Assembly (NCBI GenBank): GCA_902384935.1
Contig: CABMDO010000009.1
Location: 74,983-138,982, forward strand
Direction of reading: 5' to 3'
DNA: 64,000 nt
Source of the DNA: Candidatus Norongarragalina meridionalis
GTDB taxonomy: Archaea; Micrarchaeota; Micrarchaeia; Norongarragalinales; Norongarragalinaceae
Part shown: positions 9,901 through 51,718 of the stretch, piece by piece
Layout: each line of letters begins with the position of its first letter
Position numbering within the stretch: the first letter of the stretch is position 1
The notes under the pieces: generated by a model
Told to the model about the DNA's origin: nothing
Databases searched by the model: none
Seen by the model: only the letters and a program-made list of their open reading frames with translations
Position numbers and translations under genes: made by a program

Positions 9901-10383
9901 CCTTGCGTCAAAAGCCTGTTTTGTCTCGGTAAAATCGTAATCGAGAAGTGGTATCAAACGCAGCGCCATAGAGGTAACGAAGGCGATTTGAGAGGGCACG
10001 CGAGCTGCGCGCATGGAGTGTGCGATGTCGGACGGCATCGTCGTAAGAAGAACGATCTTGGAGGCGTATAAAAGCGCGAGCAGCCGCAAAACGATTATGC
10101 AGCCGTTGGCAAAACCTGCCCACATGCCGTACGGCCAGAACAAAACCTGGAGCGTTACGAGAAAAACCGCGAGCAGGAAAAACCATTTTCCGGGACGCAG
10201 CGCCCTCGTAAGAGGCTCGTAAGAGGCTGAAAATGCGAGTATCTCCGCCAGAATCACAAGCGCAAGCACAAACAGGTTGGTCGTGGCGAAGGCAGCCAGG
10301 GAAACGAGCAGCGCGGCGGCAAGTTTCGCCAGCGCGTTCACCCCGTGCATCGGGCTTTTCCTTTGGGAATACCTGAAAATCAA
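9679..10383 (-). CDS. ecfT: ECF transporter transmembrane T component (CbiQ family)
   Basis: 234-aa polytopic membrane protein with the EcfT/CbiQ profile. Sits in an operon with two ABC ATPases. Confidence 0.7.
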   Translation of the reverse strand: MIFRYSQRKSPMHGVNALAKLAAALLVSLAAFATTNLFVLALVILAEILAFSASYEPLTRALRPGKWFFLLAVFLVTLQVLFWPYGMWAGFANGCIIVLRLLALLYASKIVLLTTMPSDIAHSMRAARVPSQIAFVTSMALRLIPLLDYDFTETKQAFDARTRQVSAKGHLFGLKLVSAFIAASLERAETLALSLEARGFSIKRRKSPKIAFFARDWAVFGVSAVILAVSLAFP

Positions 10384-37241: not shown

Positions 37242-38669
37242 GTGAAATTCAAGACAACCGCCGACATCCCCGTGCCTTCGGACCCGCTCGAGCAGGTAAT
37301 AGGGCAGGACGAGGCGGTTCGGGTTGCCAAGACGGCGTGCAGCCAGCGCCGGCATCTTCTCCTGGTAGGACCGCCGGGAATCGGCAAGAGCATGATAGCG
37401 CAGGCCATTGCGTACCGTTTGCCGAAACCCACGGAAGAGATAAGCGTCCTGCACAACCCCGAAAACCCCGAACGCCCCACGATCGAGGTGCGGAGTTCCA
37501 CGGAAATAGAGAAGGAGCGCAAACTCGTGAAAGCGGCGGAAGCTGCGAAACTCATCGACCCTTCGGAAGCGCCCGCCATGGTTGCGGAGCGCCTCGGCTT
37601 CAGGTGCAGGTTCTGCGGTTCGCCTTCGAAACACTCCGAACGCGCCTGCCCGAGCTGCGGACGCGAGAAAACCGACATGTTCTCGCCATATCCGAACATA
37701 TTCATCGGTGCGCGCCCCCAGGCATCGCCCGAACGCGTGCACACTACGCGAATCACCGACGGCGAGCGCGAGGAGGTGGTCATATACGAACGCACGGGCG
37801 AGAAAATCCGCGTGCTCGACCAGTCGGTTCTCGAGAAAATCGACGCGATAAAGCGCAAACTCCCGCGCCGCGTGATCGTCCCGCTTGAAAGGAAGACTTT
37901 CGTGACCGCATCTGGAGCGAGCGAGACGGAATTGCTGGGCGACGTGCGGCACGATCCGTACGGGGGGCACGCGCAGGTCGGAACTCTTCCGTACATGCGC
38001 GTCGTTCCGGGCGCGATACACGAAGCGCACCAGGGCGTCCTGTTCATAGACGAGTTGAGCGCGCTCGCTTACGTCCAGCGCTTCCTGCTGACTGCCATGC
38101 AGGAGAAGAAATTTCCGATTGTAGGGAGGAACCCGCAGAGCGCGGGCGCGTCGGTGCGCGTCGAGGAAGTGCCCTGCGACTTCGTGCTTGCGGCGGCATC
38201 GAACATAAACGACCTGAAGATGATCCTTCCGCCCTTGCGCTCGCGCATAGTCGGCAACGGCTACGAACTGCTTCTTGAAACGACTATGCCGGACACTCCT
38301 GCGAACCAGGAAAAGGTTGCCCGTTTCGTTGCGCAGGAAATCCGCAAGGACGGCAAGATTCCGCACGCTTCCGCCGCGGCTGTCGAACGCTTGATCGACG
38401 AGGCGCGCAAAAAAGCGAAGGAATTCGACAACACGGACAACGCGCTTTCATTGCGCTTCCGCGAACTCAGCGGCATAGTGCGGCTCGCTGGGGACAACGC
38501 CATAGGGAACGGCGAGAAAACAATCGAGGAAGGCAACGTGGAGGACGCGGCGCGCCGCGGACGCTCCATCGAACAGCAGTTGCGCGACAAATACGGCTCG
38601 CTCTGGAAAGCAGGGGAAAGCGAGAACGTCAGCGCGCCGAAGGACGCGAAGCGCAGCGAAATCAGCTAA
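37242..38669 (+). CDS. LonB-like AAA+ ATPase lacking protease domain, with Zn-ribbon insert
   Basis: LonB N-terminus (VIGQDEAVRV, LLLVGPPGIGKSM), Walker B VLFIDELS, GDVRHDPYGG. CRFCGSPS...CPSCGRE replaces the LonB TM hairpin. The ORF ends without a Ser-Lys protease domain. Confidence 0.6.
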   Translation: MKFKTTADIPVPSDPLEQVIGQDEAVRVAKTACSQRRHLLLVGPPGIGKSMIAQAIAYRLPKPTEEISVLHNPENPERPTIEVRSSTEIEKERKLVKAAEAAKLIDPSEAPAMVAERLGFRCRFCGSPSKHSERACPSCGREKTDMFSPYPNIFIGARPQASPERVHTTRITDGEREEVVIYERTGEKIRVLDQSVLEKIDAIKRKLPRRVIVPLERKTFVTASGASETELLGDVRHDPYGGHAQVGTLPYMRVVPGAIHEAHQGVLFIDELSALAYVQRFLLTAMQEKKFPIVGRNPQSAGASVRVEEVPCDFVLAAASNINDLKMILPPLRSRIVGNGYELLLETTMPDTPANQEKVARFVAQEIRKDGKIPHASAAAVERLIDEARKKAKEFDNTDNALSLRFRELSGIVRLAGDNAIGNGEKTIEEGNVEDAARRGRSIEQQLRDKYGSLWKAGESENVSAPKDAKRSEIS

Positions 38670-40623: not shown

Positions 40624-41607
40624 ATGGCGAAGCGCAGGGCTGCGAAGCCGACGTTAAAAGCAAGAACCACCGCGGACCTAGCGGTGCCTACGCGGCTCGT
40701 CGACCAGGTGATCGGGCAGGAGAAGAGCGTCGACATCATAAAGAAAGCCGCGAAGCAGAAGCGCCACGTAATGCTCGTGGGCACGCCCGGCACTGGAAAG
40801 AGCATGCTCGCGCAGGCGATGGCGGAGCTACTGCCCGCGGAGAAGCTCGAGGACATACTTATCGAGGAGAATCCGGAAAACGAGAACATCCCGCGCGCGA
40901 AAACCGTGAAAGCGGGCGAGGGAAGGAAAATCGTCGACGAAATGCGCATGAAAACGCAGCTCGGCGGCAAGGACATGAACATCGTCTACGTGTTCTTCAT
41001 TTTCATCGCGTCGTTTTTCCTGCTCGCATACGGCAGGCAGCAGCTCGGCGACGTCATAACCGCCGCGATGCTCATCGGCCTGTTTCTCGTAGGCGGGGTG
41101 ATGATGCTCGGCTCGCAGCTGTCGCGCGGAAGGGCTGGCGCGGGTTACGAGTCGGTGAAGCTGCTAGTTGACAATTCCGGAAAAACAATAGCGCCGTTCA
41201 TCGACGCTACGGGCGCGCGCGCAGGAGCGCTGCTCGGCGACGTGAAGCACGACCCCTTCCAATCGTTCGACGGCGGAACTGTTGTTGACGGCGCGGACGA
41301 AAGCATGGAGAACCTCTGGAAGAAGATGGCTAGGAAACACGCCGCATTGATTGAGCGGAACGAGGAGGGGTACGAGGCAATAGTCCTGCCGAAGAACGAG
41401 CGCGTTTACGCGTACGGTTTGAAGGCGGGGCGCATAGTGCGCAGCAGAATCCGCATAATCAACCGCCGCCCGTACCGCGGAAAAGTAGTGCGCGTGAAAG
41501 CGGGCAGGCGCGCCATCACCACCACGCCGGAGCACGGATTCTATTCGAAACCTAAGAAAACCGCGAATTCCCTGCGCAAGGGGACGCCGCTCGTCGTAAG
41601 GAGGTAA
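40624..41607 (+). CDS. LonB N-terminal fragment (Walker A + TM hairpin) fused to intein N-fragment-like Hint module
   Basis: Aligns to LonB through LLGDVKHDPFQ, then diverges into ~114 aa: SFDGGTVVDG (intein block A-like with Ser1) ... AITTTPEHGFY (block B TxxH). Ends with no Walker B or protease domain. Confidence 0.5.
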   Translation: MAKRRAAKPTLKARTTADLAVPTRLVDQVIGQEKSVDIIKKAAKQKRHVMLVGTPGTGKSMLAQAMAELLPAEKLEDILIEENPENENIPRAKTVKAGEGRKIVDEMRMKTQLGGKDMNIVYVFFIFIASFFLLAYGRQQLGDVITAAMLIGLFLVGGVMMLGSQLSRGRAGAGYESVKLLVDNSGKTIAPFIDATGARAGALLGDVKHDPFQSFDGGTVVDGADESMENLWKKMARKHAALIERNEEGYEAIVLPKNERVYAYGLKAGRIVRSRIRIINRRPYRGKVVRVKAGRRAITTTPEHGFYSKPKKTANSLRKGTPLVVRR

Positions 41608-41611
41608 TTCT

Positions 41612-42073
41612 ATGGAGAAAACATTCGTGATGCTAAAACCGGATGCGGTTCAACGCGGCTTGGTCGGCGATATTACGTCGCGCTTCGAGCGCAAGGGATT
41701 GAGGCTCATCGCCACGAAGATGATATGGCTTAAGGACTCGCAACTGGACGAGCACTATTCGCAGTACCTCGGAAAGGACTTCTTCCCGAGATTGAAGGAG
41801 TTCATGGGCGCCTGCCCCGCGGTTGCGATGGTTTGGGAAGGGAAGGATGCGGTGAAGGTTGTGCGCGCCCTCTGCGGATTGACGAACGGGCGCGAGGCTG
41901 CGCCCGGCACAATACGCGGCGACTTCGGCATGAGCCTGCAGTGCAACCTCGTGCACGCGTCGGACGGCGTGGAAACCGCAAGCAAGGAGATAGCGCGCTT
42001 CTTCAACGGGAACGAGATATTCACGTACGGGGATTCCCTTTCGGAATTCCGCTACGCGAAGGACGAGCGTTAG
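41612..42073 (+). CDS. ndk: nucleoside diphosphate kinase
   Basis: ERTFVMLKPD, NLVHASD active-site His region. 153 aa. Confidence 0.85.
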   Translation: MEKTFVMLKPDAVQRGLVGDITSRFERKGLRLIATKMIWLKDSQLDEHYSQYLGKDFFPRLKEFMGACPAVAMVWEGKDAVKVVRALCGLTNGREAAPGTIRGDFGMSLQCNLVHASDGVETASKEIARFFNGNEIFTYGDSLSEFRYAKDER

Positions 42074-51643: not shown

Positions 51644-51718
51644 GGGCCTATAGCTCAGCCTGGATAGAGCGGTTGGCTTCTAACCAAAAGGTCGAGGGTC
51701 CGAATCCCTCTAGGCCCG
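51644..51718 (+). tRNA. tRNA-Arg (anticodon TCT)
   Basis: Hand-folded cloverleaf: 7-bp acceptor stem, 4-bp D stem, anticodon loop CTTCTAA, 5-bp T stem with TCCGAAT loop. No encoded CCA. Upstream AT-rich TATA-like box. Confidence 0.75.

Follow-up and report, generated by a model that had tools for sequence, protein, structure and literature searches.

A probable split-intein half at the end of a truncated LonB gene in Candidatus Norongarragalina meridionalis, and its relatives in DPANN archaea

The DNA analyzed here, a 64-kb stretch referred to below as the window, comes from the LFW-144_1 genome of Candidatus Norongarragalina meridionalis (assembly GCA_902384935.1, contig CABMDO010000009.1), a metagenome-assembled genome (MAG) of 0.93 Mb in 49 contigs, 93.5% complete and assigned to GTDB genus 0-14-0-20-59-11. 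It contains an open reading frame (ORF) whose N-terminal part follows the archaeal membrane protease LonB and whose C-terminal part resembles the N-terminal fragment of an intein (IntN); the gene ndk follows directly. The encoded protein, VVB67201.1, lies on a 187-kb contig and has been deposited as 'Archaeal Lon protease', its relatives being filed as 'ATP-binding protein' or 'hypothetical protein'. This ORF, called the N-half in what follows, is very probably the N-terminal precursor of a naturally split, cysteine-less intein of the class-1 type which interrupts LonB. We infer that the genome also carries the matching C-half and that the two halves are joined by trans-splicing.

The N-terminal part of the protein can be assigned to LonB with confidence. 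Residues 11-215 match the NCBIfam LonB model TIGR00764 (model positions 2-197 of 608, E 1.7e-61), and in the Walker A motif Pro55, Gly56, Gly58, Lys59 and Ser60 are invariant across 118 homologues. An AlphaFold model of the N-half, built on these 118 homologues, predicts long helices at residues 99-141 and 143-171 which correspond to the membrane hairpin of LonB, with predicted local distance difference test (pLDDT) values of up to 97. Foldseek aligns the N-terminal part with Thermococcus onnurineus LonB 3k1j (E 8e-10) and with 4zpx (E about 1e-9). The similarity to LonB ends after Gln213, where the unsplit relative P0093 goes on with TGGLGTPAHLRVEAG...GVLFIDE (TGGLGTPAH...). The insertion point thus lies between HDPFQ and SGGLGTP, a stretch which is in frame and unbroken in P0093, P0388 and other unsplit LonB proteins. 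An initial annotation of this DNA had traced the ORF along LonB through the Walker A motif, the hairpin and LLGDVKHDPFQ, and had it depart from LonB just before the Walker B region; both statements are borne out by these comparisons. Taken alone, the N-half scores 208.6 bits against TIGR00764, below the cutoff of 516.6 bits, and does not qualify as a full one-chain LonB, a status it could reach only after splicing. It cannot be a working LonB by itself because it lacks the Walker B, sensor and arginine-finger regions as well as the protease domain.

Several lines of evidence identify the remaining residues as a candidate IntN. Residues 226-307 score 24.8 bits with the NCBIfam model intein_Nterm TIGR01445, whose cutoff is 24.5 (E 3.4e-5), and phmmer comparison with PDB sequences returned the VMA intein of Thermoplasma (4o1s, at E 0.003), the KlbA intein of M. 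jannaschii (2jmz, at E 0.007) and PI-PkoII. The AlphaFold model is confident across residues 214-327 (pLDDT 85-95), and Foldseek matches this part with 4o1s (TvoVMA), 2jmz (KlbA) and 9hth (the fused Aes123 PolB1 split intein), each at probability 1.0, with root-mean-square deviations (rmsd) of 2.2-3.5 Å over about 120 columns. The target TM-score of these matches, about 0.53, is in line with about two thirds of a Hint domain, and on this predicted structure the tail would adopt the Hint fold. The initial annotation had read intein blocks A and B in these 114 residues, ahead of the stop codon, and had envisaged a Hint fold for approximately residues 215-327; the block assignments proved correct and the model agrees with the fold.

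The tail can also be related to inteins that occupy the same position in other genomes. Contiguous LonB inteins match it by tblastn (E 6e-16), and their site in other DPANN genomes coincides with the Q213/S214 junction that the initial annotation had drawn. When the IntN of the window is joined to the C-terminal intein fragment (IntC) of a near relative, the resulting sequence can be aligned over its full length with L058, a contiguous mini-intein of 161 aa (41% identity), and also with the splicing domains of inteins of 496 aa (28-36% identity). The split point corresponds to the position at which the contiguous inteins L076, L081 and L087 carry a central (endonuclease) domain of about 340 aa. 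Ser214, the first intein residue, is predicted to act as nucleophile in the initial acyl shift, and no cysteine occurs in the IntN. The features of the locus are collected in Table 1.

Table 1. Features of the N-half locus and its neighbors; positions are those of the window.
Feature	Position	Strand	Description and basis
N-half precursor gene (LonB N-extein + predicted IntN)	40624..41607	+	327 aa, ATG start, TAA at 41605-41607; ORF listing and sequence
N-extein, LonB residues 1-213, ending ...LLGDVKHDPFQ	40624..41262	+	TIGR00764, Foldseek, alignment with unsplit P0093
Walker A (P-loop) GTPGTGKS, residues 53-60	40780..40803	+	Read from the sequence
Predicted LonB membrane hairpin, two hydrophobic helices, about residues 118-171	40975..41136	+	Hydrophobic sequence NIVYVFFIFIASFFLLAY...VITAAMLIGLFLVGGVMMLG; AlphaFold
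Predicted IntN, residues 214-327 (114 aa)	41263..41604	+	TIGR01445, PDB sequence matches, pLDDT, Foldseek, alignment, dN/dS
Intein block A SFDGGTVV; Ser214 (41263-41265) as intein residue 1	41263..41286	+	Junction from comparison with unsplit LonB
Intein block B core T301-P-E-H304 (TxxH), within TTTPEH	41524..41535	+	Aligned to TPEH of contiguous inteins
ndk, nucleoside diphosphate kinase	41612..42073	+	PF00334, E 1.4e-50; 4 nt between the N-half stop and ATG
LonB-like AAA+ paralogue VVB67195.1, 475 aa, also deposited as 'Archaeal Lon protease'	37242..38669	+	Walker A, Walker B, LID domain

The N-half belongs to a large family. A total of 1013 homologues were retrieved at E <= 0.001 and, among the best 120 listed, nearly all are 320-430 aa long and cover about 90-100% of the query. 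Their hosts are Micrarchaeota, Iainarchaeia/Diapherotrites and other DPANN archaea. The homologues stop 22-37 aa past block B and, judged on these sequences, the architecture of a LonB N-extein followed by an IntN is common in DPANN archaea, with more than 100 proteins. Intein residue 1 is nucleophilic in 118 of 118 N-halves (Ser in 97, Cys in 18 and Thr in 3), and Thr301 and His304 of block B are conserved in at least 90% of them. One homologue (P0030, 419 aa) continues beyond the IntN into a domain resembling a tRNA-intron endonuclease (PF01974), an extension which is probably due to a lost stop codon or to a gene-call fusion with the downstream gene.

A matching family of C-halves was found through an exhaustive search with the Walker B fragment of LonB, in which matches started at the Q/S junction, about 40 residues from the N-terminus of the protein. 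These proteins follow the pattern M...KGxVYNVTTETGNLFVxxILVHN/SGGLGTP..., the slash marking the junction, and continue with Walker B, the LID domain and Lon_C. In P0253 and numerous other proteins the sequence is M...KRPFKGHVYNVTTETGNLFVEDILVHN/SGGLGTPAHLRV..., again followed by Walker B, the LID domain and the Lon_C protease domain. Further examples are PIN96295.1 and OIO27672.1 (455 aa), and one stretch of such a C-half is MVKVESVKRRKLKGFVYNATTDTGNLFVNGILAHNSGGLGTP. The IntC leader, 35-45 aa long and ending in HN, matches the intein_Cterm model TIGR01443 (19.7 bits against a cutoff of 15.6), and P0521 scores 620.9 bits against TIGR00764 over model positions 168-606. The C-half is devoid of Walker A and of a membrane anchor. 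An alignment of IntC sequences was then scanned against one genome per species, which gave 227 confirmed matches; the locus counts given below refer to the best 80 of these 227. In this set, both terminal Asn and +1 Ser occur in 80 of 80 loci, and in 73 of 80 the C-half stands alone with its own ATG, 30-45 codons ahead of the HN/S junction.

The two halves can be found in the same genome or assembly. Both are present on the Micrarchaeota contig JAHJQN010000008.1, some 89 kb apart: P0037, the N-half, near 143.4 kb on the forward strand and P0523, the C-half, near 54 kb on the reverse strand. Among the nearest relatives of the window protein, the C-half P0521 (455 aa; IntC MVKVESVKRRKLKGFVYNATTDTGNLFVNGILAHN) shares its assemblies with the N-halves P0001 (ERZ27293400; 88% identity to the window protein) and P0003 (ERZ27293347, JGI 3300025021), on separate contigs of equal GC content (0.59-0.60). 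The IntC fused to a LonB C-extein, whose absence from the genome would have told against the reading of the initial annotation, exists in the family and in these nearest relatives.

A mechanism can be proposed from these two families. The N-half gene would produce a membrane-anchored chain with Walker A and the transmembrane hairpin, an incomplete ATPase ending in the 114-aa IntN. A second gene elsewhere in the genome would supply an IntC of 35-45 aa ending in Asn, followed by Ser(+1), Walker B, the LID domain and the S16 protease domain. After association of IntN and IntC into a complete Hint fold, Ser214 would attack the peptide bond at Gln213 in an N-O acyl shift. The N-extein would next be taken over by the +1 Ser of the C-extein (trans-esterification), and cyclization of the terminal Asn would free the intein. 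A final O-N shift would leave a native ...HDPFQ-SGGLGTP... LonB of about 633 aa (213 + 420), in which the ligated junction would span HDPFQSGGLGTP. Ser1, TxxH, the terminal Asn and Ser+1 are the residues of canonical class-1 splicing.

Several observations weigh against the assignment of the N-half to a functional split intein. Taken one by one, the intein matches of the single sequence are modest (24.8 against 24.5 bits; E 0.003). Block F carries Asn (VYN) where many class-1 inteins have Asp (VYD), and 32 of the 80 relatives have a residue other than His in the penultimate position, which suggests that the kinetics of splicing may be unusual. IntN (net charge +16) and IntC (+4) are both basic, and hence without the charge complementarity of the split inteins modelled in PMC2677866. 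In addition, the C-half of Ca. Norongarragalina meridionalis was found neither in the window nor among the best 80 of the 227 IntC matches, and no Norongarragalina member is present in the 90% cluster to which the nearest C-half (P0520/P0521) belongs. As the MAG, in 49 contigs, reaches a completeness of 93.5%, the C-half could be absent from the assembly.

Some of these observations would suit a different reading, in which the intein fragments act as a dimerization or cleavage module that holds the LonB halves together without ligation, or in which the N-half has a separate function. The missing penultimate His, the Asn in block F and the basic character of both fragments would all be compatible with it. 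However, every residue of the chemistry is retained: the nucleophile at position 1 and the terminal Asn and +1 Ser in all sequences counted, together with the Thr and His of block B. Such a full catalytic set would not be expected to persist were binding alone important. The break furthermore separates Walker A from Walker B within the AAA+ module, a region in which unsplit relatives normally have a continuous chain. A function without splicing is accordingly considered improbable.

The initial annotation had left two options, an IntN half or a decayed pseudogene, and the first of these is the one supported by conservation, substitution rates, fold and the partner family. As a pseudogene, the N-half would be the non-functional leftover of a once contiguous, intein-bearing lonB that had lost its 3' part. 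Consistent with such a loss, and as the initial annotation had stated, no Hint C-terminal half, endonuclease or C-extein accompanies the N-half: tblastn of the window with the paralogue, three C-halves and seven contiguous inteins revealed neither an IntC nor a Walker B/protease C-extein nor an endonuclease in the 40 kb upstream and 22 kb downstream, the only matches being the IntN itself and the paralogue. That the best 80 of the 227 IntC matches include no C-half from the same genome points in the same direction. A remnant would nevertheless drift towards a ratio of nonsynonymous to synonymous substitution rates (dN/dS) of 1 and acquire stop codons. Among four congeneric genomes (Nei-Gojobori method, six pairwise comparisons), dN/dS is 0.10-0.22 for the IntN and 0.06-0.12 for the N-extein, which argues that the IntN is under purifying selection and not decaying. 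In the same four genomes, that of the window and three congeners, the ORF is intact, has the same end point and is followed by the same ndk neighbor. The retention of the nucleophile and block B in more than 100 homologues and the existence of matching C-halves in relatives likewise speak strongly against decay, which makes a pseudogene highly improbable.

Almost no weight can be given to an artefact of assembly, binning or gene calling, in which a frameshift, contig chimerism or a false join to ndk would have interrupted a contiguous intein-bearing lonB. The source is a MAG, and frameshifted LonB fragments do exist in public data (short ones were returned by a 104-aa C-extein query). However, the same stop followed by ndk recurs in independent assemblies from different localities (the LFLS site in Australia, three further MAGs in GenBank and re-assemblies from ENA), the stop comes after the conserved C-terminus of the IntN with the AGGAGG of ndk embedded in the final codons, and most stand-alone C-halves possess an ATG of their own.

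The position of ndk, which the initial annotation had placed directly downstream, is confirmed, and this gene marks where the N-half gene truly ends. AGGAGG constitutes the last two sense codons (AGG AGG) of the N-half and lies 8 nt 5' of the ndk ATG (41596-41614). This location inside the final codons of the N-half makes co-transcription probable, and suggests that the N-half and ndk are translationally coupled or co-transcribed. The same gene order is found in three other genomes (L004, L089 and L092).

Comparison of the 80 loci indicates how a split intein of this kind may have arisen. Seven loci have a contiguous intein at the exact Q/S site (L055, L058, L073, L076, L081, L086 and L087), while in the other 73 the intein is split. 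In 45 of the 80, the two halves share a strand, the N-half being upstream, and the distance between them ranges from -4 to 5355 nt. In 36 of these 45 linked loci, a same-strand ORF of 316-387 aa stands between the halves, for instance at L005:8181-9263 (+) and L056:8815-9864. No Pfam domain is found in this in-between ORF. Across some 320 residues it shares 30-45% identity (E values as low as 1e-90) with the central domain of contiguous 496-aa LonB inteins, a domain which in turn matches the intein part of the NCBIfam model of intein-containing RtcB (E 5e-25) and in which a LAGLIDADG-like ILGxxFGDGG motif was spotted by eye. By homology to this central domain, the in-between ORF is regarded as putatively endonuclease-like, and the endonuclease domain of the intein itself seems to have been turned into a separate gene. 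This homology suggests a break-up of the intein ORF rather than the invasion of a foreign endonuclease gene.

Other loci represent further states. At L082, the split is minimal: the stop of the N-half overlaps the start of the C-half (ATGA, 9971-9974) with nothing between them. At L074, the halves are 82 nt apart, and the Micrarchaeia locus L058 (8717-11182) is occupied by the contiguous 161-aa mini-intein mentioned above, at the same LonB site. In 28 of the 80 loci, no N-half is present in the locus; just four of these have the full 10 kb of upstream sequence, all four from Micrarchaeota, and JAHJQN010000008.1 is one of them. Going by gene layout, the putative intein family covers contiguous, fractured, abutting and dispersed states, and the window is an example of the dispersed one. 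As the endonuclease-like ORF is found in 36 related loci and is absent from the window, the latter can be viewed as a dispersed derivative.

A second, contiguous intein is also present in many C-halves (P0370, P0373 and P0376), after ...TEPVP/C... of the AAA+ module. C-half ORFs of 622-993 aa at L029, L033, L038, L041, L044, L051, L063 and L078 carry it, and at L029, L033, L038, L051 and L078 tblastn with the free-standing ORF gives matches inside the C-half gene (about 28-37% identity). LonB would there need one trans-splicing and one cis-splicing event. Split-LonB contigs have also been placed in bins labelled as Falkowbacteria, Chloroflexi, Thaumarchaeota and 'bacterium' (L010, L017, L041 and L072); they are probably mis-binned DPANN contigs.

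A broader reading joins these observations, although it is offered tentatively and in its full extent is rather doubtful. The DPANN LonB intein would constitute a large, mostly cysteine-less split family of which all stages of break-up are extant, from contiguous with endonuclease and mini-intein to three adjacent ORFs, abutting halves and dispersed halves. In the dispersed state of Micrarchaeota, the membrane-anchored N-half would be co-transcribed with ndk and the C-half, a soluble protein, would sit in another operon, and trans-splicing could be a post-translational checkpoint that sets the amount of active membrane LonB.

The PolB of Nanoarchaeum equitans is a natural split intein. Natural split inteins are also found in cyanobacterial DnaE and in phage-like metagenomic genes (PMC4760082, PMC2677866). 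The predicted LonB pair has much in common with the DnaE inteins of Ssp and Npu and with N. equitans PolB: an essential multi-domain enzyme is encoded by two genes at distant loci, the IntN is about 100-125 aa long with blocks A and B and the IntC about 35-45 aa with blocks F and G, and the break lies at the endonuclease insertion point. Their dispersed layout is paralleled by the Micrarchaeota locus L071/L002, and Foldseek aligns the window IntN, weakly, with Npu DnaE (4kl6, 4qfq). In contrast to these systems, the LonB host is a protease and not a DNA polymerase, the pair has Ser1 and Ser+1 and no cysteine in either fragment, and the fragments are without acid/base charge complementarity. 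No close sequence kinship with DnaE or PolB is detectable either, the best PDB sequence matches being the VMA and KlbA inteins.

A second comparison concerns the fractured genes described by Dassa et al. (2009), in which the IntN is 88-105 aa and the IntC 33-54 aa long (PMC2677866). The 45 linked DPANN loci resemble them in retaining the order and strand of the halves, 36 of them with an endonuclease-like ORF in between, and in similar fragment sizes. The window itself does not have this arrangement, as its N-half adjoins ndk and neither a C-half nor an endonuclease ORF is present in the window. Moreover, the DPANN in-between ORF has its homologue in the central domain of the intein itself, whereas that of Dassa et al. 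is GIY-YIG or Vsr-like, and the hosts here are cellular archaea and a protease instead of phage-like genes of DNA metabolism.

P-loop ATPases are a class often invaded by inteins, and Novikova et al. (2016) list 10 contiguous LonB inteins in Euryarchaeota (PMC4760082). The host protein family, a P-loop ATPase, is the same, but the euryarchaeal inteins are encoded by single ORFs and that of the window would be distributed over two genes. In their Ser nucleophiles and cysteine-free intein fragments, the predicted LonB halves resemble the cysteine-less split inteins AceL-TerL/CL and Aes123 PolB1 (PMC11923092, PMC10189870). The fused Aes123 PolB1 intein (9hth) superposes on the predicted window IntN with an rmsd of 2.2-2.3 Å over about 120 columns; the sequence identity is nevertheless 13%, and the host, archaeal LonB, and the lineage differ. 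The literature on split inteins in connection with LonB, Lon protease, DPANN or Micrarchaeota gave no description of a split LonB intein, subscription journals lying outside this scope so that an earlier report is possible. Neither does the source paper of Ca. Norongarragalina meridionalis mention a split LonB, and its supplementary tables include no MEROPS S16 table. The proposed mechanism is canonical; what is new is the host protein, the breadth of the lineage and the evolutionary series.

These findings have consequences for the annotation of reduced DPANN genomes, where the N- and C-halves should be counted as one gene in inferences on proteostasis or 'gene loss', neither being a working LonB alone. 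The hosts of natural split inteins have mostly been enzymes of DNA synthesis and repair (PMC4760082, PMC2677866), a list which a protease would now join. Split inteins would also be common in cellular archaea, beyond the single case of Nanoarchaeum PolB, and the related loci would offer a rare natural series for studying the origin of split inteins. Finally, cysteine-less split inteins are rare and sought after for ligation under oxidizing conditions (PMC11923092, PMC12707363). With more than 100 natural variants (IntN about 115-130 aa, IntC about 35-45 aa), this family may provide a panel for protein engineering, the pair of this lineage being cysteine-free with Ser1 and Ser+1.

The LonB-like paralogue located upstream of the N-half was considered as a splicing partner and ruled out, as it possesses a Walker A of its own and is devoid of both an IntC and a protease domain. 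It scores 356.6 bits against TIGR00764, below the 516.6-bit cutoff, and in place of the membrane hairpin it has a zinc-ribbon-like CxxC...CxxC insert of about 20 residues. The paralogue is conserved next to the N-half in the congeners, with a length of 473-476 aa. Elsewhere in the window, a tRNA-Arg (TCT) at 51644-51718 (+) is the sole tRNA found.

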